Virus record (IMG/VR): IMGVR_UViG_3300037722_000335
Span: 1-34,450 of that record
Direction: 5' to 3' (one strand)
Length of the DNA: 34,450 nt
Source: a virus
Lineage: Duplodnaviria; Caudoviricetes
This document shows positions 629 to 27,384 of the stretch, in pieces (the stretch's first letter is position 1; every line of letters begins with the position of its first letter). Below the pieces are notes generated by a model, which saw only the letters and a program-made list of their open reading frames with translations, was not told the origin of the DNA and did not search any database. The position numbers and the translations under genes were made by a program.

Positions 629-991
629 TTAGACCATAAAAGTGAGGTTGATTTTTAACTGCTGGTCTATCTCTGTACCGTCCAGCATCTCGAAGTAATG
701 CACTGTTTTTGTATTGTCTATCACGCCAAGGACCGCATGACCCTTGATCTGTACCATGCAAACAGGCCAGTCAAATTCACACATCATAGCTACGGCAACG
801 ATGACGTTACGAGCGCAGTCTATTTTGTCTTTGACTATTCGTGGGTCGTGCAGTCGTCGTATTTCCCTTTCTTTGATACAGTCAGCAACCGCTTTTTTAA
901 TCTGCTCGATAGTCGGTAACATCCATCTTTTAGCAAAGAGCAGGTTGTCGGATTTAGGGAAAAGCGCCCTTACTTCATTCGATGTTATCAT
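629..991 (-). CDS. Hypothetical protein, possible papain/transglutaminase-like Cys-His fold
   Basis: 120-aa ORF packed between neighbours; KIDC...GHAV spacing resembles a Cys-His dyad (weak). Confidence 0.55.
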   Translation of the reverse strand: MITSNEVRALFPKSDNLLFAKRWMLPTIEQIKKAVADCIKEREIRRLHDPRIVKDKIDCARNVIVAVAMMCEFDWPVCMVQIKGHAVLGVIDNTKTVHYFEMLDGTEIDQQLKINLTFMV

Positions 992-3900
992 TATCTTTCC
1001 TGTTCATATCATTGGCTATTTCTCGCATTACAATTGCCACCTTTTCTTTTGAGGTGGCACCGGCAAGCGCCTTGGTAAATGCAGTGTTTTTCGCAAGTAG
1101 CCCCTGTTTGACAATCCGATCTTTTAATTTCGGGGCAATCCCGGCTACAACCATTTTTTCTTCCTGTGTCATCTTTGACAGGGATTTATCAATCGCGACA
1201 TTCTGTTTAGTTTTTTCCAGATCAATCGCTCGAAATTCGTCATATATTTTCTCGGTAACACCCCTGTCTGAAATCTGGATATATGCCCCGATTGCATTAA
1301 CGCCCCATAGGTTTAAAACTATCTCGGCAGTAGAACGCTCCCTTTTAATGTCGTCATATTCCGGTTTATATAAAGTCCCGCCGCCGGTGTCGCGCCAGAC
1401 GTTTTTGACAACTTCTTCGGCCAGCATTAATCCGCCTAAATCCATGGCCGCGTCACTGTTCTTGTTCCGGCCCATATAATCGTCAACTGGATTAATGCCT
1501 TTTACATAAACGTCACGGACATATAGCGCCGATGCTGGCACAGGATGCAATTGATACGGGAAGAAGTTGTATGCTTCCGACAAAGCGGTTCCTTTCCCGA
1601 CAAACTTACCCTTCATCATTTTCCAGGCAATCGCGCCAAAGGTCTGTCCCTCGTAATCTCTGGGTATTTGCAACCAAACACTTTTGCCGTCTTTGGTTAA
1701 AAACAAAGGAATACAAGTATAATGCGACATATTGTATTCAGGGATTCCGGCGTAAATCCTTTTGATATAACCGCCTCCGGTGATTGTCCCATCGTCTTCA
1801 CCGTCATCGTAGACTCCCTTTGCGGCAAGAAACATCATCACAGTAGGCACCACATTAAGGGCCATGGTTTTCCAGATATAATCAGCAGGACTCTCTTTTA
1901 TCGCTTCGATATGGGACTTGATCCCCTGTACCGCGACATTGGAAAACATGGCAATAGAGTTGGTATATTTGTGCAGTTTGCCCCGCTCTTTAAAGTTCGG
2001 TGTTCCTATCCTGCCGTTTCTCACTCGGTTAAGGACTTCTTGTTTTGAAAGACCACGCTTTAAAAGATACTGTGCCCCGGCAATCTTGCTGACTATCTCC
2101 ATTGACCGGCCAACGTTATCAACGTTTCTGTTTAATCCGGTCCATGCTTTTCGCCACTTGCCTACATTCTGGTCTGCCTTGGTGGAAAGTTTATAATTAG
2201 CCTGCAAGCGGTGCAATTCGCCGTCTGTGGAAATATCCCGACCATCATAAACTCTGTCTTCAGTCAGGGCTCTGTTGGTCATCAGCCAGTCTACGGTGTC
2301 ACTCCGTTTTCTTTTCCATGCCTCATTAAAAGCTTCCGGGGTAGCTTTTAAATAGGTCAACAGCAGTCCCGGTATATGACGCAAGCCGATCTCTTTATTC
2401 TTCGTGACCGTGCCAAAGAAGTCGCGGGTTGCGTTTTTTGCCATCCATGCTGGATTCTTTGAAATAAACAACTGTCTGGTGAAAGACGATATCATTTGCC
2501 ACGCTTCGGATACCTGATTGGCGGTGTACGGGTCGGATTCGTAAGCCTCGGCAATATGCTGAGAAACATAATAGTTTTCTGCATTACCGTTTATCATCAC
2601 CGTGAATATTTTCTCGTTGGCCTCGCTTGATTCGGCGGCCACCATAAACTTGCCGTTAAATTTGACGCTTGCCGGTTTGAGTTCGCCTACTTCTTGCAAC
2701 AATGGGAGTATCGAGCGTTTTGATTTGTTTATCCGTGCAGCCCGGATAAGAGAAATATCCTGAATGATTGTCGCTGTTACCGGGGAGTTGACTTCTGACA
2801 AAGTGCCAAGTGCTTTGTAAACTCTGCCGCCGGCACCTTCACCGAACTTCTTATTCAGATGATGGGTAACAGAGACTTTGGTATAATCGGTTGTCTCGTT
2901 CATAAACTTAACGAGTTCGTCAGAATATAAACCGGATTCTTCCATCAATGGGTATATTCGTTTATCCCTAATGCTTCTGAACTTGTCGAGCAGGGCGTTT
3001 ACCATATCGTATTTCTCTGCGCCCCAATCTGCCTTTAATACTCCAAGGTCTTTAGCTGCTGTTTCCGGGGTATATCCTTTAGTGGAAAAAACATCTTTCC
3101 TGTTGGCGGCGATATGTTTTCTCAAAGCTACTACGTCAAGGTCGTGGACGGTCAGGTTGTTATCGTCCATTTCCTTTTGCAGCCCGTTTATTTCGAACAG
3201 GTAAGCGTCAACCTCGGAAGGGATGTAGGGAAGTTCCTTGAGTTCGTTAATGGCCGCCGTAGCTTTTGTCTTATCGGTGCTTTGCTTGAGTGCCTTGTTT
3301 ATAAAGTGGTGCTTGTCGCTTAGATTTTCAGCCAAGGTATCAATAAATCCCTGGCTATCGTCAATCTTGGCCAGTTCTGCCCGAACACCTTCACCGCGCT
3401 GGAGCATTTCGTAATCGCTTTGGATTCTGGCTCTCGAAACCTCAACAGGTCCACGCCCTATCCTTTTAGCAATATCGCCCCATATCTCGGAGGCTTCCGG
3501 CTTGTTGTCGATGTAGTTAAAAAATCCCTTATAAAATTCAGGTGCTACCCGCTGGACCATTTGCGGATTAACCAAGATTCCAGACAACGCATCGGCGTAA
3601 AGTTCTTCAGATGAAAAACGATACTTGGTATATTTGGCATTGCCCCAAACATTGAACGGCTTCCACAGTTGGGTAAACAGTTTCAGTTCTTCGGTAATGA
3701 CTTCCTTGGAAATCAGGTTGCGTTTCAGGATCTCTTCCTTGACCAGTTCCTTGAACTTATTGTAAACGTCCTTGTTGGTCGGTTTCGGCTGTTCTATCTG
3801 GTTGCCGGTTTTAACTTCAATGTATGTTTTAAGGTGGGCCATTTCCGCGGGAGAAAGCCCTTTCATGGCCTGTAGCCCGATAGACTTTTTCACGGCGGTC

Positions 3901-6900
3901 GACGCGGTGAAGATAAAACTTATTACATCGGCGGTCGGTTCTGGATCTGTTTCCATGCCTTTTAAGACGGCAAGGACTTGTTCAGGGGTAACCGGAGTTT
4001 CTGTGGTGATAACCTCGTCGATTAACTCACTGGCTTCGCGTTTGGTTAAGAGTCGTGCTTCTTTCATTAACCGTTTGCGGTCGGCCTCGGTGATAACTCC
4101 CGGCGCTCCGGGTTTTTCTTCGATGTAATGCTTTAAATATCCCTTAATAGAAGCTATCCGGCCAAGGATATTACCTCGCGCCATGGTGTCAGCATCTTTG
4201 TAGTCGATCAAGTGGCCTATTTCGTGGGCCATGGTCTTTAATGCCTGGTGAAAGTCTGCGCCTAATTCTTTGAGTATTTTAATCCCGCCCAGGCCGGATG
4301 GCATAAACTGACCTTTTACTCCTGCTTTGCGGAATTTGTCTACCAGTAGTGGACGGTTGCCATTCATTAACTCGGTTGCCAGCTCGACCAGTTCGGGCAT
4401 TTCCATAATAACCGGCGTGTCGGAAAACTCGCCCATGGAATACAGACCGTAGCTTTTGGCTTTATCGGCGTTCATCGGTTCGCCTTGTGCTGGCATTACC
4501 GCAGCGATAAATTCACCTTCGTTATAGCCAAACACCACACCATCAGGAGATATCCGGTATTCAACATCCGGATAGATCGATTCAACTATATTCAGCTTGC
4601 CTTGTGACACGTTAAACCGTTTGTTGGTTATGGTGTCCATGATGATAGCCTGTGCGTTTAACTCGCCCATCTGCAATACAGGCCCTTTGGCTACCACTGT
4701 ATCTGTTTCGCCACTGGTGTAATATCTTATCTCGGCTGGATTGGCTTTCTCGGCCATCTGCTGATACGAAACAAGAGCCGTATCAAAGGAGCTATTTTCT
4801 TCGGTAGGTCTGTTCGGCGGCTTAAATCCCCTAACCGCCATGGTACTGTCACTCACCCATTCACCATGAGTGATAGTTTTCTCCGCCCAGTCGAAAGTCT
4901 TCTTCGCCTTATTGGTCGGATTGACATTGGTCGAGCTTTTACGGATTGCCGGAGCAGGAGTGTAAATTCTGCTGACCAGTTTCTTGAAAGAACGGAGCGC
5001 GGTCTTGTTATTCAGTACGGTGTATTCAGTACCGTCTGGCAGGATAAACCGAACCGCCTTCACCTCTTCGGATATTCGCGGGACCGCTGCTTCAACTACC
5101 CGCTGGACCTCTTCGATCTTTTTCTTTTTCGGACCTTCGGCTTCGTCTATGGCTACGATGTGGATTTTATCGGTCGGCTGCCAAGGTACTGGACTGTTCT
5201 TTGAAACTTTCCACTTTTCCCCGACAATCGATTCAGACAAGGTGTAATTCTTGTGACTGCTGATTAACTTCGGCTTTGCCAGTTCTGCCAGCTTCTTTTC
5301 TTCCTTGGCTATTGCGTCTTTGACTTTCTTCGGCCCGTACTCTTTTAAAAAGTCGGTCAGGTCTTCAAGTAGTTCAAGGTCTGCAACGTCGATGTTTTCC
5401 AGTTCTTTATCGGTGCGCTTTTTAACCAGTTTTTGGGCTGACTCGTTGAAGTCGGCTTTTACTTTTGCGGAATCAAACTTGCCTAATAGTTCGTTGCTGG
5501 CAAGACCTTCACTAACCATGTCCGATAGGATAGCCCTTGCCGCGCGGGTTAAGGGTATGTCCTTTATGTTGTCCGATAGAATTGCAGTCGATATGGTATC
5601 AAACTCAATCTCGTCTATGTGGGGGCGGGATTGCTTGATCTTGAGTATTTTGGCTGTGTCGCTGCCTGTGGTGGTAATCGTTTCTTTTGGTTTGGTTGGT
5701 TCGCTTTGAAGTGCTACCGTCTCGGCCTTTGGCCCGGATGGTTCATTGGTTTCTTTGATTGTTTCTCCGCCTGACGCATCACCCCACTTTCTCCTTCTAA
5801 TTATCAATGGGGTTAATTCTTTGTTTATTTCGTCGAACCCCACCTCTCCATAAGAAACATTTCTTGCTTGTTTTGCCAGTTCGTTATATCTGCCTACCTC
5901 TTCTCCACTTAAAGGACCTTCTCCTTTTTTATACTCTACTGCTTTTATATTGGTAGATTTTTTTTCTGGAGGGCTAAAATTACCGATCTCACCGACAAAC
6001 GACGCATCAGACAAAACAGCCTCGCCGCTATCATTAAAAACCTCGTCAGTGTTTATTGATCCTGTTACTATTCTTACGCCGTATCCCCAGTCGTAACTTC
6101 GAGCAAGGTCATAGGCTTCTTTGAGATTTTCTACTTTTTGACTATATGAATCATAATCCCATGAACCAGAAACAAGAGCAACAGAAGTGCCATTAAGTTC
6201 TCTCCAAAGTTCTTGGTCTATGTTTTCTGGTGAGTCCCAAGATTTTTTTGGTTTACCTGTGACATTTTCTTCTTCTGTAATGGATCTAATACCAACAACT
6301 CCAGTCTTGGTATTGTTGTCTATGTGGTTTATTAATTTGGAAAGAGATTTTTCAGACTTAACATTAAAAACACTTTCATTGACCTTGACAACAGCCTCTT
6401 TCTTTGATGTGTCATCGCTTATTTGCTCTTTCTTCGCCGCATACTCAGCCTTTTTAAGCACGTTCAACCTAAATTTTGCATCGGCAAGTTCAGCCTTCAA
6501 TGCAGCAATAGGATTGCTTTTAATTTGTGCGTTGAGTTTGGTTATCTCTTGACGGACTGATTTAACCGTTGGCTTTTTGGCCTGTGGTTTCAGTTCACCT
6601 TTAGCCGGACCATCACCAACCACCCATTCTTTAAACTCGACAACAGGCATAGAAACAACTGACTTGCCGCCTGTCCAGCCTTTTTCATAGTTGGAGTTAT
6701 AGAGGTCGAGCGCTTCTTTTTTTGAGCCAACACCCAACACGCTCTTATGTTCATCGAAGGAACCGTCTTTATTGTGCTGATTGACCACATAAACAGTATC
6801 AGCGTTGCCTTTGTACCCCGGTGCAATAAAGATATCCACATGATCTTTGTCATATCCTTTGCTGCCAAGGATTCGCCCGTAGTCGTTCTTCATTTTGATT

Positions 6901-9206
6901 GACCACTGACGACCGCTATTGTCGGTTCCTGATCTGGTTGATCCTGCGGGGTTTTCGATTGAAAGGTTTAGTCCATCAATTGATACTTTAGCCGTTTTGT
7001 AATTCTCTGCTTCTTTCTGTTTTTCGCTTGGATTGGTGTTGACTTCCTGACCATTTACTATAGATTTTGGATTTTCAACAACACCTCCGGACGGTGCGCT
7101 TGCTGTCGCTTCGGTCGTCGGAGCTATTCCAGAGGCTTCCGGAGGTGTTTCCTGCGCCGTGCTGTCCTGCTTGGTGCTTTCTACCTTGTCGGGGATAGAC
7201 TCTTGAACCGCTTTACCTGTCGGCTCCACAGGAGATATTTGACCACTTCCTTTTATTTCTGCACTCTCTTGAGCCCGAATATCGACATTAGACAATCCGA
7301 CATTGCCAGATTCTGTGGCTTTGGTTTCAGTTGAAGTTGGCTCATTTGGTTCAGTCGGCAAATCTCTTTTTGCTTCTCGGTTTTCTCCATTTGGATAAAC
7401 CTTACCCCCTTTATTATCCGTTGTTCTTTGGTATGGGGGTAGAGTTCCTTCACCTGTTCGGGTGTAATCCAGATTTTCTCCATTAGTCGTTCCTCCTTCT
7501 GGATTTACAGGTGATGGCTGCAACTCGGCATTGCCGGTTTCTGCAATTGTTCCATTGTCAGGCTGGACCTGTTCTGCCGCCGCCTGTCTGACTTCGACCC
7601 TTCCTTCAGGTATCGCTGATTTCGGAGTAGTTTGATTTCCAATATTTTGAACAGGACCATTTGGCTCTCCTTGTATTGGATCGGATACTGGCTCATCAGC
7701 TGGCAAAACAATTTTCTCGTAAAGTTTATTCTCACTCGGAATAATGCTCAGCGGTCCGGCTGGTAAATCATTGACACGTTCTGCATTTCCTTCATTCGCC
7801 TTAGGTAAAGGGATCTCAGTTCTTGGTGATAAAAGTCCCGTTGCTCTTTCAAGGTCAACTGTGGCTTCGGCTTCGGTAATATCCGGATTTCCACCTTTTT
7901 GAAGAATATCATTCTGCGCTCCCTGGAGTATCCCTGTACCCTGTTGGAATTTAGATATAGCCTCGTCAACATTCTTGGCCTGTAATATGTCAACCGATAC
8001 GGCTCGTTTCAGATTGAGCATACTTGAGCCGGTCATCATTGCCCCGCCCTGTCCTGCACCGACTACAAGGCCAATTCCGGCGGCCTCGGCGTTACCTTCG
8101 CGCCATGGTCTGCCGAGAGCCACATTGGTTAAGGCGTTTTCATTATACGACTGAAGAGTCTCTTCAAGACCTTCCTTTACCGTACCTTTAAGAATATTAG
8201 GAACGGCTTGTTTAGCAGCGATACGTCCACCGAGGCCAGCGGTAGCAAGAGAGGCTTCAGCGTCACGCAGGCCGGGAATCTTTGAAGTGAGTCCACCAAT
8301 TGCAGCAGTGCCTATCCCTGCGGCTGTGGCTGGCAGAATGGTATCGCTCCAATCTCTTCCGGCCTGTCTGCCTTGTTCCTGAATTAGTCCGGCGGTCTGT
8401 GCACCCTCTGCGCCAGCCCCAGCCATGACTATCTTTGATTGTACTGATGGATTTAAAAAGAATTTAGCGGCGAAGTCTTTAGCTGCGGCTGATCCGGCGG
8501 TAATGCCGTTTTTCGCCAAAGCGGAACCGAGCAACTTTACTGCGGCGAATCTGGCTACCGCGGCTCCTGAAGCGGTAAGGGCGGAGGATTCGACTATAGC
8601 GCCGAAAGCTACTGAAGGATTGTCGAGCAGAGCGTCGACCGTGCCGAGAAAACCTTTGGCTTCTGATACTTCCGTGTTGGCTTGCTTACGGCTGTCTGAA
8701 TAACCTTGAGCTAAAAGCCCTTTTGCTGCGGCTGGATCGTATCCAATTTTGGATAAACCTTTTCCAACCAGGTTGAAAGAAGCCATATCAGCAATACCGA
8801 CCCCAGCCTCACCTAAACCAATTACGCTGTTGGCGGCATCGATTGCCGTGTCTTTGGCCGCTTCACCCCATGTACGGTCTATCTTTCCTTCTCTTTCTGG
8901 ATCTTCGGGATATTCAACAGGAGCGTGAACACTTTTGGCAGGGCCAGCCGGAGTCAATCCTTCGAACATTGGATTGGGCTGTTTTGCGTCAACGAATGGT
9001 TGTTCTTTGAGAGCGTCGCCGTAAAAACGTGACATAAAGCCCGACCTAACTTTTTCTTTGTCCTCGTCAGGCAGTAAAACATAAGACTTGTGAGTTTCGT
9101 ATTTCGACCATTCTCGGTTGATATAATTCTTAATAACCGTCGCTTGATCTTCAGGATTCAAAGACTGAAATTTAGGATGTTGCCTGATTTTGTCTAAGCG
9201 CATCAC
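975..9206 (-). CDS. Giant polyvalent / internal virion (ejection) protein with InPase, zincin metallopeptidase and LPD38-like modules
   Basis: 2743 aa, at the end of the ejection-gene block. InPase motif (IENPAGSTRSG...DYGRI...DKDHVD...FDEHK), AHEIGH zincin motif, C-terminal IPEY...WLQIPRDYE LPD38-like segment, N-terminal Ala/Gly-rich region. Confidence 0.85.
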   Translation of the reverse strand: MMRLDKIRQHPKFQSLNPEDQATVIKNYINREWSKYETHKSYVLLPDEDKEKVRSGFMSRFYGDALKEQPFVDAKQPNPMFEGLTPAGPAKSVHAPVEYPEDPEREGKIDRTWGEAAKDTAIDAANSVIGLGEAGVGIADMASFNLVGKGLSKIGYDPAAAKGLLAQGYSDSRKQANTEVSEAKGFLGTVDALLDNPSVAFGAIVESSALTASGAAVARFAAVKLLGSALAKNGITAGSAAAKDFAAKFFLNPSVQSKIVMAGAGAEGAQTAGLIQEQGRQAGRDWSDTILPATAAGIGTAAIGGLTSKIPGLRDAEASLATAGLGGRIAAKQAVPNILKGTVKEGLEETLQSYNENALTNVALGRPWREGNAEAAGIGLVVGAGQGGAMMTGSSMLNLKRAVSVDILQAKNVDEAISKFQQGTGILQGAQNDILQKGGNPDITEAEATVDLERATGLLSPRTEIPLPKANEGNAERVNDLPAGPLSIIPSENKLYEKIVLPADEPVSDPIQGEPNGPVQNIGNQTTPKSAIPEGRVEVRQAAAEQVQPDNGTIAETGNAELQPSPVNPEGGTTNGENLDYTRTGEGTLPPYQRTTDNKGGKVYPNGENREAKRDLPTEPNEPTSTETKATESGNVGLSNVDIRAQESAEIKGSGQISPVEPTGKAVQESIPDKVESTKQDSTAQETPPEASGIAPTTEATASAPSGGVVENPKSIVNGQEVNTNPSEKQKEAENYKTAKVSIDGLNLSIENPAGSTRSGTDNSGRQWSIKMKNDYGRILGSKGYDKDHVDIFIAPGYKGNADTVYVVNQHNKDGSFDEHKSVLGVGSKKEALDLYNSNYEKGWTGGKSVVSMPVVEFKEWVVGDGPAKGELKPQAKKPTVKSVRQEITKLNAQIKSNPIAALKAELADAKFRLNVLKKAEYAAKKEQISDDTSKKEAVVKVNESVFNVKSEKSLSKLINHIDNNTKTGVVGIRSITEEENVTGKPKKSWDSPENIDQELWRELNGTSVALVSGSWDYDSYSQKVENLKEAYDLARSYDWGYGVRIVTGSINTDEVFNDSGEAVLSDASFVGEIGNFSPPEKKSTNIKAVEYKKGEGPLSGEEVGRYNELAKQARNVSYGEVGFDEINKELTPLIIRRRKWGDASGGETIKETNEPSGPKAETVALQSEPTKPKETITTTGSDTAKILKIKQSRPHIDEIEFDTISTAILSDNIKDIPLTRAARAILSDMVSEGLASNELLGKFDSAKVKADFNESAQKLVKKRTDKELENIDVADLELLEDLTDFLKEYGPKKVKDAIAKEEKKLAELAKPKLISSHKNYTLSESIVGEKWKVSKNSPVPWQPTDKIHIVAIDEAEGPKKKKIEEVQRVVEAAVPRISEEVKAVRFILPDGTEYTVLNNKTALRSFKKLVSRIYTPAPAIRKSSTNVNPTNKAKKTFDWAEKTITHGEWVSDSTMAVRGFKPPNRPTEENSSFDTALVSYQQMAEKANPAEIRYYTSGETDTVVAKGPVLQMGELNAQAIIMDTITNKRFNVSQGKLNIVESIYPDVEYRISPDGVVFGYNEGEFIAAVMPAQGEPMNADKAKSYGLYSMGEFSDTPVIMEMPELVELATELMNGNRPLLVDKFRKAGVKGQFMPSGLGGIKILKELGADFHQALKTMAHEIGHLIDYKDADTMARGNILGRIASIKGYLKHYIEEKPGAPGVITEADRKRLMKEARLLTKREASELIDEVITTETPVTPEQVLAVLKGMETDPEPTADVISFIFTASTAVKKSIGLQAMKGLSPAEMAHLKTYIEVKTGNQIEQPKPTNKDVYNKFKELVKEEILKRNLISKEVITEELKLFTQLWKPFNVWGNAKYTKYRFSSEELYADALSGILVNPQMVQRVAPEFYKGFFNYIDNKPEASEIWGDIAKRIGRGPVEVSRARIQSDYEMLQRGEGVRAELAKIDDSQGFIDTLAENLSDKHHFINKALKQSTDKTKATAAINELKELPYIPSEVDAYLFEINGLQKEMDDNNLTVHDLDVVALRKHIAANRKDVFSTKGYTPETAAKDLGVLKADWGAEKYDMVNALLDKFRSIRDKRIYPLMEESGLYSDELVKFMNETTDYTKVSVTHHLNKKFGEGAGGRVYKALGTLSEVNSPVTATIIQDISLIRAARINKSKRSILPLLQEVGELKPASVKFNGKFMVAAESSEANEKIFTVMINGNAENYYVSQHIAEAYESDPYTANQVSEAWQMISSFTRQLFISKNPAWMAKNATRDFFGTVTKNKEIGLRHIPGLLLTYLKATPEAFNEAWKRKRSDTVDWLMTNRALTEDRVYDGRDISTDGELHRLQANYKLSTKADQNVGKWRKAWTGLNRNVDNVGRSMEIVSKIAGAQYLLKRGLSKQEVLNRVRNGRIGTPNFKERGKLHKYTNSIAMFSNVAVQGIKSHIEAIKESPADYIWKTMALNVVPTVMMFLAAKGVYDDGEDDGTITGGGYIKRIYAGIPEYNMSHYTCIPLFLTKDGKSVWLQIPRDYEGQTFGAIAWKMMKGKFVGKGTALSEAYNFFPYQLHPVPASALYVRDVYVKGINPVDDYMGRNKNSDAAMDLGGLMLAEEVVKNVWRDTGGGTLYKPEYDDIKRERSTAEIVLNLWGVNAIGAYIQISDRGVTEKIYDEFRAIDLEKTKQNVAIDKSLSKMTQEEKMVVAGIAPKLKDRIVKQGLLAKNTAFTKALAGATSKEKVAIVMREIANDMNRKDNDNIE

Positions 9207-17024: not shown

Positions 17025-17055
17025 CTCAAACCTTACAAGAGAAACCTATAATAAA

Positions 17056-17104
17056 AAATGGCAGACGTTAGGTTGACGCTTTTCGGGAGCTACCCTAGCC
17101 ATTT
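17056..17104 (-). ncRNA. Structured leader RNA (three-way junction candidate) upstream of HNH gene
   Basis: Minus strand AAATGGC-TA-GGGTAGCTCCC-GAAAA-GCGT-CAACCTA-ACGT-CT-GCCATTT: closing 7-bp stem plus two inner hairpins. Confidence 0.55.
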
Positions 17105-17116
17105 CTATTTTTGTCT

Positions 17117-23901: not shown

Positions 23902-25191
23902 TCAGTATCCGGCCCCCGCGTCATACGGCATTGACAATGGGACTTGTACCGGCTCGTAAACGTTCTCATTATGGTTGTGCATATTCTCAGCGTTACAGCA
24001 GATGTATCGAAAATTATCTCCACCATGAGACCAGATATCCCCAACAGGGCGGCCCTCTGCTTGTGTTGCCCTGTTGACAGTCCTCTTGTATCGCTTCAAT
24101 GCTTCAATGAGTGGATCGGCAAGCGTTTTATCAAAGTAGAACTGGCTAAACATCATCCTGGCATTTCTGATACCTGTTTCAATCCCCATCTCTACTATGT
24201 CGTCACGACTCGGCACGTCCCATCCAAGCGCACGAAAGACTTCTGCGTCGGTGTTGCCAGTCTGTCTACTTGTGCTAAATCCGTCATGAGGGAGAAAAAC
24301 CTTGCCCCAATTATAGTTAAGCGTTCGCATATAACCAGAATAGCCAGGGATATCTCTGAATCCTCCCTGAATAGCCCGAATAACCCTAATCTCTGATGAT
24401 TTCTTTTGGACGAAAGACAGGAACATATGGTCGAGGTTGCCAAGATCGGCAATGACATGGACCCTTAACATTGGATCGTAAGGGACGTTGCAGATTCTGC
24501 CCTGCCTGTTTGCTGTTTCAATTTCCTTATAGAAAATAGCACCATCGGCAGCCGGACGACACACACCCTCCCAGACATTATCGTAGTCGTCGGGGTATTT
24601 CTTCTGGCACTCAATCCGCTCTTGTTCCAAAACTGCATTAAACCACGGATTGTCGGAGTAATTCATGTGGGCCAGAACACAGTCGTCAGGTGGTTCTATC
24701 GCGAAACGTTGGTGCGTTGGGTCTGTCTCTAGGTCAGGGTTGTAGGTAAACCATATTTCTGAACCGTCCTTACGAATAGTCGGCAGTAGAATTTTCCATG
24801 AACGATCTGAGATAGACTGTGCTTCCTCCACCCACGCAATATCATAACCTTCAAAAGATTTGATAGAGTCTACTGTTTGACCTGAGAGTCCGGTAAAAGA
24901 TATCTTCGTGCCGTTGTTCCCTCTTATCTCGTCGCGGAGAGTATTGTAGAAGGGACCAAGGCCCATCATTTGAATCTGGTCTTTTAATAACTGGTAAACT
25001 GAATCGTCCAGAGACTTTTGAACCTCACGTGCGCACAAAATCCGCACCTTCTTTGCCCTGCCCATCACCAACAATGCCCTGGCAAACGACCACGACTTAG
25101 CAGATCCTCTACCACCCTTCGCGCCCTTATACCGATGTGGCTCATAAAGGAACGCTAGCTTGTTTGGTATCTGGATGGAGAGTTTAGCCAT
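23902..25191 (-). CDS. terL: Terminase large subunit (PBSX/XtmB-like)
   Basis: Walker A GGRGSAKS, CAREVQKSL, Walker B WVEEAQ, TYNP, C-terminal nuclease (DLG, LPHDG, SHGGDNFRY). Confidence 0.95.
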   Translation of the reverse strand: MAKLSIQIPNKLAFLYEPHRYKGAKGGRGSAKSWSFARALLVMGRAKKVRILCAREVQKSLDDSVYQLLKDQIQMMGLGPFYNTLRDEIRGNNGTKISFTGLSGQTVDSIKSFEGYDIAWVEEAQSISDRSWKILLPTIRKDGSEIWFTYNPDLETDPTHQRFAIEPPDDCVLAHMNYSDNPWFNAVLEQERIECQKKYPDDYDNVWEGVCRPAADGAIFYKEIETANRQGRICNVPYDPMLRVHVIADLGNLDHMFLSFVQKKSSEIRVIRAIQGGFRDIPGYSGYMRTLNYNWGKVFLPHDGFSTSRQTGNTDAEVFRALGWDVPSRDDIVEMGIETGIRNARMMFSQFYFDKTLADPLIEALKRYKRTVNRATQAEGRPVGDIWSHGGDNFRYICCNAENMHNHNENVYEPVQVPLSMPYDAGAGY

Positions 25192-26275: not shown

Positions 26276-26394
26276 CTACTGTGGTGGGATTCGAACCCAC
26301 GGAGCCCGTAGCACTAAAACTGATATTGGCCAGGCTCTAGTTTTTTAGGGCTATAATCTCCCATCTACCCGTTGAGCCTCTCCGGCACACAGAC
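26276..26394 (-). ncRNA. tRNA-like RNA / pseudo-tRNA with expanded central region
   Basis: Perfect T-arm GTGGG-TTCGAAT-CCCAC, Ser-type D-arm TG-CCG-GAGAGGCTCAA-CGG, 5-bp acceptor pairing CTGTG/CACAG; about 68 nt between the D and T arms; no CCA. Confidence 0.6.
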
Positions 26395-26425
26395 TGTCAT
26401 CAGCGAATATCCGAATCTCGCGTAA

Positions 26426-26596
26426 TCACAGGACACATCTTTGCAAATAACCCTTAACCAATTCCTTATCAACCAGATAACATTCTGTATCGGTGATTAT
26501 ATCAATAGCCGCTTTCTTGCTTTTGGAAACAGCCTTTGACAACTTGCCTTGCTCGGTTGTGGTCATTGATGCTATTGCTTTTTTCCAGTTCTTCAT
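26426..26596 (-). CDS. Small hypothetical protein (56 aa)
   Basis: Manual translation MKNWKKAIASMTTTEQGKLSKAV...YLQRCVL; ATGA overlap with the upstream ORF. Confidence 0.5.
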   Translation of the reverse strand: MKNWKKAIASMTTTEQGKLSKAVSKSKKAAIDIITDTECYLVDKELVKGYLQRCVL

Positions 26597-26862
26597 AATA
26601 GTTCCGGGGCTGTTGCCAGTTGACTAAGAAGATCTTCCTTGGCTTCGGCAATGGTAAACCGTGTTCTACCCACGGTTACAGTGTCAGATCCACTTTTGGG
26701 ATACTCCATAATATCGTTTGCCACTTCGTCCATTAACTTCAGTGCTCCAAAACTAGGCAAAATCAGCGAATGAAAAACAACAGACTTTCCTATGCTGATA
26801 AAAAAAGACTTATCTTTGTTTTGTTGTATCGTGTATTTATATTTGAGTTGTTCCTGTTCCAT
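26593..26862 (-). CDS. Hypothetical protein (89 aa)
   Basis: AAGGAG RBS; TAATG coupling to the upstream ORF. Confidence 0.65.
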   Translation of the reverse strand: MEQEQLKYKYTIQQNKDKSFFISIGKSVVFHSLILPSFGALKLMDEVANDIMEYPKSGSDTVTVGRTRFTIAEAKEDLLSQLATAPELL

Positions 26863-26975
26863 TACTTGAGCTCCTTTGCCAGAAGGTCAACCAACATCTT
26901 CAACACCCGATACAAAATCTCCTGCATCTTCCTCGCCGGGATCGCCGGTTTAGCAATCGGCTGATATTCTTTCAT
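26862..26975 (-). CDS. Small hypothetical protein (37 aa)
   Basis: Manual translation MKEYQPIAKPAIPARKMQEILYRVLKMLVDLLAKELK; exactly fills the gap with TGATG and TAATG overlaps. Confidence 0.6.
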   Translation of the reverse strand: MKEYQPIAKPAIPARKMQEILYRVLKMLVDLLAKELK

Positions 26976-27295
26976 CAATTCTGGCATGACAATCCGAGTA
27001 ATTGGTCACAAATTTGTTTCCGAGTAATCACACCGGAGTCCAATTCATCTTTCAAAACAAACAATCCGTCATCCTGTGTATCCCGCACGGAAAAGAGTAC
27101 CGCTTTACGACCGTCATTGAGGACAACTTCCTCTTCGTGAATGTCGGCCTGTTCAAATTTATCAACAACTTCAGTGATTACACGGAGTCTCCGCGCCTTT
27201 TCGGTGATTTCTGCGATTCTGTTGGACTTAGCTCTTTCGAGTGAAAGTTGCCTGAACGATGGTGGTTGAACAAAATTGACGATGTTTTTTGCCAT
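26975..27295 (-). CDS. Hypothetical protein (106 aa), first gene after the CRISPR-repeat-like leader
   Basis: AGGAG RBS directly following the repeat-like unit. Confidence 0.7.
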   Translation of the reverse strand: MAKNIVNFVQPPSFRQLSLERAKSNRIAEITEKARRLRVITEVVDKFEQADIHEEEVVLNDGRKAVLFSVRDTQDDGLFVLKDELDSGVITRKQICDQLLGLSCQN

Positions 27296-27305
27296 TGATG
27301 CTCCT

Positions 27306-27338
27306 GTTTCAATTCACGCCCTGACTAAACAGGACGAA
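27306..27338 (-). CRISPR. Solitary type I-C CRISPR repeat-like unit (not an array)
   Basis: TTCGTCCTGTTTAGTCAGGGCGTGAATTGAAAC: 7-bp stem CGTCCTG/CAGGGCG then the 11-nt tail TGAATTGAAAC, matching the I-C architecture GTCGC...GCGTGGATTGAAAC. Confidence 0.65.
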
Positions 27339-27355
27339 AAATTATAATTTTACTT

Positions 27356-27384
27356 ATTATATCACGTTTTCGAGTGGTGTACAA
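27356..27384 (-). promoter_or_regulatory. Sigma70-type promoter
   Basis: TTGTAC, 17-bp spacer, TATAAT with extended TG (TGATATAAT). Confidence 0.7.

Follow-up and report, generated by a model that had tools for sequence, protein, structure and literature searches.

A solitary type I-C-like CRISPR repeat in the 5' leader of a phage gene cassette: a candidate RNA decoy

The predicted 5' leader of a small phage gene cassette carries a 33-mer (27306..27338, minus strand) that, judged by its sequence and layout, is a slightly degenerate, solitary copy of a type I-C CRISPR repeat. It lies directly in front of the ribosome-binding site (RBS) of the first cassette gene, and by analogy with known elements it most plausibly works like an RNA anti-CRISPR (Racr) built into the 5' end of an mRNA. 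Promoter-proximal viral solitary repeats are described in the available part of PMC10651486. The mainly open-access literature that was searched gave no description of the RBS-fused layout, and, in contrast to RacrIF1, the piece predicted to be active is the downstream mRNA.

The phage, the leader, and the cassette

The window analyzed here is the whole stretch of 34,450 bases, a partial phage record that is itself a whole assembly. The source is an uncultured phage from sediment, and at least half of the 25-29 kb stretch is present in three sediment metagenome runs, one of which may be its source. The window encodes terminase subunits, a head-tail adaptor/portal-like protein, an N4-gp56-type major capsid protein, a 2,743-aa DarB-like protein, a DNA methylase, a Rha-like regulator, and a tRNA-Met, with nearly every gene on the minus strand. 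Homologs of the capsid protein include one at 62% identity, and another at 59% identity that is labelled as a Desulfobacteraceae MAG gives a weak host hint. Every capsid match among annotated phages was below 35%, and none of the 522 spacers from the fetched arrays matched the three phage records, which are the window and its two relatives, G001 and G002.

Several other features of the record were observed. The DarB-like protein (975-9206, minus strand) contains an inorganic pyrophosphatase domain (InPase, PF18823) at 728-862, and the 5668-7073 part of its gene is largely unaligned in G001 and G002. An Rfam int-alpA RNA (17044-17105, minus strand; 39.6 bits against a gathering score of 35.8) lies immediately upstream of a gene for an HNH endonuclease; G001 does not have this gene there. 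Just behind the cassette, a tRNA-like T-arm (26280-26400, minus strand) was found as an Rfam tmRNA fragment (E 0.003) and is present in G001. ARAGORN calls no tRNA at this position, and a D-arm-like stretch can be seen by eye about 90 nt upstream; together they are possibly an interrupted or decayed tRNA gene.

The promoter, repeat, RBS, and start codon of the leader are all on the minus strand. As the earlier note on this DNA had proposed, a near-consensus promoter-like site precedes the repeat: a predicted -35 hexamer TTGTAC (27379..27384; TTGTGC in G002) is separated by 17 nt from TATAAT (27361-27356), which is part of a predicted extended -10 element, TG-N-TATAAT (27356..27364), that is the same in G001 and G002. 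The promoter listing scores this site as TGTACA-16-TATAAT with a 10/12 match, and the window holds 21 promoter-like sites where 22.7 are expected, so the promoter match alone is not above chance. Transcription is predicted to start near 27349. The predicted start is covered by a 14-bp perfect A/T palindrome (27338..27351), the only perfect 14-bp palindrome in the window, which is kept in G002 and is a possible repressor operator. A promoter-like site on the plus strand that overlaps the repeat (27321-27348) was treated as chance.

The 33-mer lies about 11 nt behind the TTGTAC-17-TATAAT site and consists of 2 nt, a 7-bp stem (arms at 27336-27330 and 27323-27317), a 6-nt loop, and an 11-nt tail (27316-27306). 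The stem and tail described in the earlier note are confirmed by folding, with a minimum free energy of -10.8 kcal/mol and a z of -3.1; only 1 of 200 shuffles folded equally well, and the tail is free in the fold of the 33-mer. In a 100-nt transcript the stem pairs with probabilities of 0.83-1.0 in the window and G002 variants alike, and in both variants the 11-nt handle is predicted to be mostly base-paired in naked RNA. The tail abuts the RBS, AGGAG (27305-27301), which is followed after 5 nt by the start ATG at 27295, so that the RBS and start codon do follow immediately, as had been noted. The position that a spacer would occupy is thus a 34-nt pseudo-spacer (27272..27305, minus strand) made of AGGAG, 5 nt, and the first 8 codons of a 106-aa gene.

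The repeat is single. Its 14-nt tail motif with up to 2 mismatches matches once in the window, none of the repeat families listed covers the 33-mer, and a second repeat 60-75 nt away, as in a mini-array, is absent. G001 and G002 each have one copy. The window, a partial phage contig, has no cas gene among the 46 ORFs scanned against PHROGs and Pfam. The earlier note's claim of a lone repeat away from cas genes therefore stands, and the 33-mer is also intergenic with no partial repeat within 100 bp, two features that SRUFinder uses as criteria. Four of eight DNA runs were compared. Contigs from runs X2 and X3 span the leader with no listed difference, and the leader is therefore not an artefact of this assembly; contigs from X4 do not lie over the repeat, and X5 gave no contig.

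The first gene of the cassette (26975..27295, minus strand) encodes a 106-aa protein of an unnamed small family that is 97% identical in G001 and 94% in G002. It is predicted to have a long N-terminal helix and a small beta/alpha domain (model pLDDT of 73.5, against 55 for a first model). Eight distant homologs of like length share 28-46% identity with it, all of them unnamed or 'hypothetical', and one of these may lie in a related phage; two more hits, to long proteins, appear to be spurious. For this protein, no match to a family, a PDB entry, or a fold was obtained. A word search returned only the protein itself, Foldseek searches of PDB (first model) and BFVD (second model) gave nothing with E <0.001, and the ESM Atlas held no usable match for it or for the 56-aa protein at the end of the cassette. 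VIA matched only the N-terminal helix of the model (Z <5), which leaves the fold of the C-terminal domain barely probed. The gene end is overlapped by a 41-aa ORF (26862..26987, minus strand) that is conserved in G001 and G002, followed by an 89-aa ORF (26593..26862, minus strand) that is absent here in both relatives. The last ORF (26426..26596, minus strand) encodes 56 aa, or 54 aa in G002, with no family match. Family, PDB, and fold searches, run without a dedicated Acr library, found no likeness between the cassette neighbors and known Acr or Aca proteins, whose genes are frequent though not obligatory companions of Racrs. A promoter and palindrome followed by small ORFs of unassigned family is a layout that we take to be like that of acr-aca operons, as a resemblance only.

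Kinship with type I-C repeats and conservation

According to the available text of PMC8524198, type I-C repeats have a conserved layout of a 2-nt overhang, a 7-nt stem, a 5-nt loop, and an 11-nt overhang. The window repeat follows this layout with a 6-nt loop, which is also found in 33-nt array repeats. The 3' end of such repeats, GCG-TG(G/A)ATTGAAA(C/T), is matched exactly; the window has the TGA variant of the tail, which also occurs in the 9-copy arrays L173 and L174, and G002 has the G variant. When 185,579 genomes were scanned for the stem arms of the window repeat together with its tail, six matches resulted: one array repeat, four in long ORFs as called by a crude ORF picker, and one lone intergenic copy. 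The array match belongs to a degenerate 5-copy array beside cas5c, cas8c, and cas7 in a Fuerstiella MAG, where the cas genes score above the cut-offs of TIGR01876, TIGR01863, and TIGR02589. Its repeat shares both stem arms and is identical to the window copy in 27 of 33 columns and to the G002 copy in 28 of 33. At the level of sequence this likeness shows kinship, not host identity. Together with the published layout, the shared stem arms uphold the assignment of the element to type I-C made in the earlier note. In the I-C array at L333:5200-5520, from a Fuerstiella MAG, all five repeats differ in the stem and the tail is kept exactly.

The window repeat departs from array repeats by G1U, by C5U (kept as a U-G pair), in the loop, and by a G-to-A change in the tail. 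Cas5c recognizes the cut site plus the downstream handle and tolerates changes in the loop and 5' overhang (PMC8524198, available text), so that G1U, C5U, and the loop fall where change is tolerated. The same text states that Bacillus halodurans Cas5c reads U-G-G in the handle, and the window tail has A in place of G at the third handle position. The window repeat is 82-85% identical to the closest of about 34 repeats compared, against the SRUFinder rule of at least 90% identity and at least 90% coverage to a known repeat with a bit score of at least 41.1. Its 5' end, TTCGT, is found in none of the at least 101 other viral copies listed, a set partly selected for the consensus head.

How often such a pattern arises by chance was estimated by shuffling and simulation. 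The exact tail occurs in 1 of 100 shuffles, and a tail with at most one mismatch occurs 0.015-0.025 times per simulated window. The tail with a 7-bp stem in register occurred in none of 800 simulated windows, and from the stem rate in the window (18/22940) it is expected about 1-2e-5 times per window, for a pattern that was picked after the sequence was seen. A covariance model built from 28 array repeats, which is narrow and roughly calibrated, ranks the repeat first in the window at 15.2 bits, with an E of 0.21 that is not significant, and scores the G002 copy at 17.9 bits (E 0.09). The second match of the model (12.8 bits; 24176-24186, minus strand) is a tail-only match in the terminase gene and was rejected as chance since it has no stem. 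Rfam CRISPR-DR32 and DR2 score about 14.6 bits on the leader, far under their gathering scores, and no CRISPR family came near threshold over the window or over 181 nt.

Two relatives carry the leader. They were recovered from a viral scan with the 106-aa protein (2 of 22 stretches), and a 10-sequence profile gave the same two among 6. A viral scan with the homolog P0127 found further homologous loci in none of 35 stretches, and 3 of 103 stretches from a metagenome scan were set aside on inspection as short and spurious: two contain an in-frame stop, and one falls within an unrelated gene. Annotated phages and plasmids gave no meaningful match to the leader or the 106-aa protein. The G001 leader is identical to that of the window. 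In G002, 612 of 1543 four-fold sites (40%) have diverged over 11 shared genes, and the repeat has changed at 0/14 positions of the stem, 3/6 of the loop, and 1/11 of the tail; the tail change gives the exact consensus, making the 14-nt consensus end exact in G002. Stem and loop differ in their rate of change (Fisher p 0.018). Compared with the rest of the aligned intergenic DNA (169/993, 17% diverged) the stem is only marginally more conserved (p 0.07), and the promoter stretch adjoining the repeat is equally conserved, with 0/28 changes. Stem covariation, which the earlier note had proposed to look for in related phages, did not appear, as no compensatory stem change separates the phage copies with one informative relative; the stem and tail themselves are kept in the diverged G002. 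This conservation, from one informative genome, is suggestive of selection at the sequence level.

The surroundings of the repeat are conserved as a block. G002 keeps the promoter, palindrome, repeat, and the 106-, 41-, and 54/56-aa ORFs, although the upstream neighbor and the terminase differ. The pseudo-spacer has one difference (33/34 kept), and the first 11 codons of the 106-aa gene have 1/11 synonymous changes, against 33/89 beyond (p 0.09). In G002, a tRNA-Ser(GCT) at L343:11971-12056 replaces the 66-aa ORF that lies directly before the promoter in the window.

Solitary I-C repeats in viral contigs

Viral solitary repeat units (SRUs) were reportedly described by Faure et al. in 2019. Lone viral I-C repeats are already known and common, with about 1,000 catalogued and RacrIC1 validated. 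The published SRU table has 2,090 'I-C' occurrences over two columns, or about 1,000 rows, and I-C is its largest class. The 18-mers of the window element and the contig ids of its relatives are absent from the SRUFinder catalogue, and the element probably lies below the 90% identity rule.

A targeted scan for the tail followed by RBS and ATG gave 34 viral loci, 27 of them distinct. These comprise 15 solitary repeats (one belonging to a relative of this element), 7 loci with a tail only or a weak stem, and 5 arrays. The genes behind the RBS-fused repeats are unrelated to one another and include those for a major capsid protein, a serine integrase, and a tail-associated protein. Of 20 downstream genes scanned, 13 are without a PHROG match. 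A search of mainly open-access literature turned up no paper that describes a natural viral repeat with an RBS fused to it.

Three scans without the RBS term listed at least 125, at least 45, and at least 122 loci. After removal of 95 array loci, of near-duplicates, and of matches lying too near the end of a locus, the class set comprises at least 101 distinct solitary repeats and at least 62 tail-only controls among the matches listed. Exact-tail matches without a stem make up 70 of 125 among the viral matches listed. An RBS and start lie within 25 nt downstream of 9/101 repeats among the matches listed, against 1/101 at the mirror position (p 0.02) and 10/703 at shifted positions. Within 45 nt the contrast with the mirror position no longer holds (13 vs 7, p 0.26, among the matches listed). 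The orientation test used 69 listed repeats with flanks of at least 600 nt. Between co-oriented genes, repeats lie on the mRNA strand in 27 cases against 6 (p 3e-4), or in 21 against 8 with a stricter gene length, and the tail-only controls divide 4 against 4 (all among the matches listed). Among the co-oriented cases listed, 10/27 repeats lie within 30 nt behind an upstream stop and 11/27 within 30 nt before a downstream start. These class-level counts are rough because the gene caller is a crude ORF picker, which called 26 of the 69 listed repeats inside ORFs. Sense orientation is a property of the class, and RBS fusion may partly reflect tight gene packing.

Short direct repeats (at least 12/14 nt) flank 10/101 of the listed solitary repeats on both sides, compared to 7/595 shifted controls (p 2e-5). 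The ten loci are L094, L160, L172, L194, L197, L204, L243, L256, L309, and L314, and L160 has a perfect 15-nt flanking duplication. The flanking repeats look like target-site duplications, recombination via overlapping spacers, or assembly chimeras, and they may show the route by which lone repeats originate. No such flanking repeat was found at the window repeat, where the best match is 8/14.

Two further groups were observed among the viral loci. Degenerate or two-copy I-C repeats lie directly before the RBS of the next gene in L011, L016 (1501), L009, and L036; this gene encodes a serine integrase in L011 and L016 and is an integrase-like ORF, by eye, in L009. Rather than serving as decoys, these repeats could provide attachment sites for integrating into CRISPR arrays. 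Shortened I-C-like repeats with a short stem and an exact tail, classed as tail-only by the filter, recur as a family in the related viral contigs L059, L063, L073, L128, L129, L143, L153, and L157.

A possible mRNA decoy and competing explanations

The leader repeat is read here, tentatively but ahead of the other explanations, as a Racr-like RNA decoy for host type I-C Cas proteins. Transcription would begin near 27349, and host Cas5c would cut at the stem's base (27317/27316), freeing only a piece of about 33 nt (based on the available text of PMC8524198). The remaining mRNA would then start with the 11-nt crRNA handle and be bound by Cas5c, and Cas8c and Cas7 would load on the next ~34 nt, which hold the RBS and the first 8 codons. 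The resulting non-targeting complex would divert Cas proteins from real crRNAs. Loaded transcripts would stay untranslated, likely as a side effect. Any decoy action would have to come from the mRNA side because the upstream piece is too short and Cas5c grips the downstream side. A repeat in a 5' leader thus predicts that the decoy is the mRNA, given that Cas5c holds the piece downstream of the cut, and that loading competes with ribosomes. The type I-C PAM is TTC (PMC8406640, available text), and at its own locus the pseudo-spacer is preceded by AAC. Since the pseudo-spacer also has no TTC-flanked match of more than 6 seed bases in the window or G002, self-attack is not expected.

The decoy reading is favored by the layout of the repeat, its kinship with the repeat beside cas5c, cas8c, and cas7, its single copy, its position between the promoter-like site and the RBS, the kept stem and tail, and the mRNA-strand bias of the class. 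It is opposed by the covariance E values of 0.21 and 0.09, the 82-85% identity, the marginal stem conservation next to an equally conserved promoter stretch, the lack of a compensatory stem change in the one informative relative, the A at the third handle position, the lack of likeness to known Acr or Aca proteins among the neighbors searched, and the paired handle, which in naked RNA could, according to the folding model, slow Cas5c.

Known systems provide precedents. RacrIC1, from a Bifidobacterium pseudocatenulatum prophage, is a solitary I-C repeat in an mRNA and inhibits type I-C (PMC10651486, available text), which means that an mRNA-borne I-C repeat can inhibit immunity. The same source reports that even a non-targeting crRNA lowered type I-F interference. 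Like the window element, RacrIC1 as described there is a solitary phage mimic of an I-C repeat in the mRNA of small genes, with no cas genes nearby. It differs in lying 11 nt downstream of acrIC5, on the 3' side of its transcript, whereas the window element occupies the 5' end, directly against the RBS. The handle-bearing product predicted here is the mRNA itself, none of the adjacent genes is a known acr, and the sequence is more degenerate. RacrIF1 resembles the window element in having its own promoter and a cut predicted at the stem base by a host processing nuclease, and it acts via a 70-76-nt product upstream of the cut with Cas6f and a Cas7f filament (PMC10651486, available text). That mechanism cannot be copied here because the upstream piece is only ~33 nt and Cas5c holds the downstream handle. 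Viral SRUs in general are, like the window element, intergenic, single, and just downstream of a predicted promoter (available parts of PMC10651486 and PMC11656645). No class of viral solitary repeats is larger than I-C, and in the literature searched, as far as the available texts go, only RacrIC1 has been tested and its mechanism has not been worked out. With its two natural variants the present locus offers a compact test case, in which a negative outcome would mean that many catalogued 'Racr candidates' are relics; as a single locus it is a modest addition.

An unlikely explanation, and the one that holds up best after the decoy, is that the repeat is a relic or an exapted hairpin that was captured by recombination from a host array and is now neutral or a plain 5' stabilizing hairpin. 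Solitary I-C repeats abound in viral contigs (at least 101 distinct copies listed) and precede unrelated genes, and the direct repeats that flank 10/101 of those listed (7/595 in controls) are the footprint expected of recombinational insertion or chimeric assembly. The window repeat has also drifted to about 82-85% of the closest repeat compared, and a change confined to the loop fits any selected hairpin. However, the single-stranded tail is kept, with its 1/11 change going towards the consensus, and a mere hairpin would not need a tail. The window repeat has no flanking direct repeat, and the sense-strand bias does not follow from neutral insertion alone.

That the main purpose is Cas-coupled expression control is somewhat more doubtful. 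Either Cascade would cover the RBS, or trimming by Cas5c would leave a stabler 5'-OH mRNA; in the first version, the cassette would be off when Cas proteins are free and on once they are saturated or absent. Because the handle runs straight into the RBS, Cas7 could not load without covering the RBS together with the start codon. Further points in favor are the excess of RBS and start within 25 nt of the listed repeats (9/101 vs 1/101 mirror, 10/703 shifted), the 15 of 27 distinct loci in which a solitary repeat is fused to an RBS, and the little-changed first 11 codons (p 0.09). In the available text of PMC10651486, the 5'-OH processing product of RacrIF1 is also the stabler one. In contrast, the excess over the mirror position disappears at 45 nt, and among the matches listed stop adjacency (10/27) equals start adjacency (11/27), so that the RBS adjacency is explicable by compact intergenic space. 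No conformational switch is predicted either: with the handle blocked, the energy for opening the RBS goes from 7.9 to 7.1 kcal/mol in the window and from 9.6 to 7.9 kcal/mol in G002, a shift of only 0.8-1.7 kcal/mol. The start region of the window is fairly structured, its 7.9 kcal/mol ranking 35th of 38 starts. The Cas-sensing switch that the earlier note had raised is thus not supported so far. Its broadest form, in which phages repeatedly fuse an I-C repeat to an RBS so that the mRNA becomes a crRNA, Cascade is soaked up, and translation is held until the pool is saturated, is improbable. If true, such a Cas-gated switch would be natural and present here and at 14 other distinct viral loci, before unrelated genes that include those for a major capsid protein and an integrase, and phage translation would be naturally controlled by CRISPR effector proteins.

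A guide function is very improbable. Cracr/crlRNA guides resemble the window element in being a viral single repeat with a pseudo-spacer that competes for Cas proteins, and type I-C candidates are predicted among them (bioRxiv 10.1101/2024.10.29.618823, available text). Here, the processed RNA would steer Cascade to a host cas or toxin promoter. Cracrs differ in that they have a non-coding spacer matching such a promoter and a terminator or second repeat (same source and extent), whereas the window spacer is the RBS and coding start, which explains why 33/34 of the pseudo-spacer is kept. No second repeat is present, and no terminator-like site is listed behind the repeat. No target was found in about 0.7 Mb of loci, the host genome not among them, and the phage genomes: the best TTC-flanked seed match in the loci is 9 nt (11/34 overall), where a Cracr would need at least 9 PAM-proximal matches to a host cas or toxin promoter, and in the phage genomes none exceeds 6 nt. 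The least probable explanation, chance likeness, with an ordinary hairpin in the leader and, behind it, an A/T-rich run resembling a CRISPR tail, fits the weak covariance and Rfam scores and the roughly half of listed exact-tail viral matches that are stemless (70/125), but it is opposed by the tail and in-register 7-bp stem in 0/800 simulated windows (~1-2e-5 per window), by the exact 14-nt consensus end of the G002 copy, and by the intergenic, sense-oriented position that the element shares with its class.
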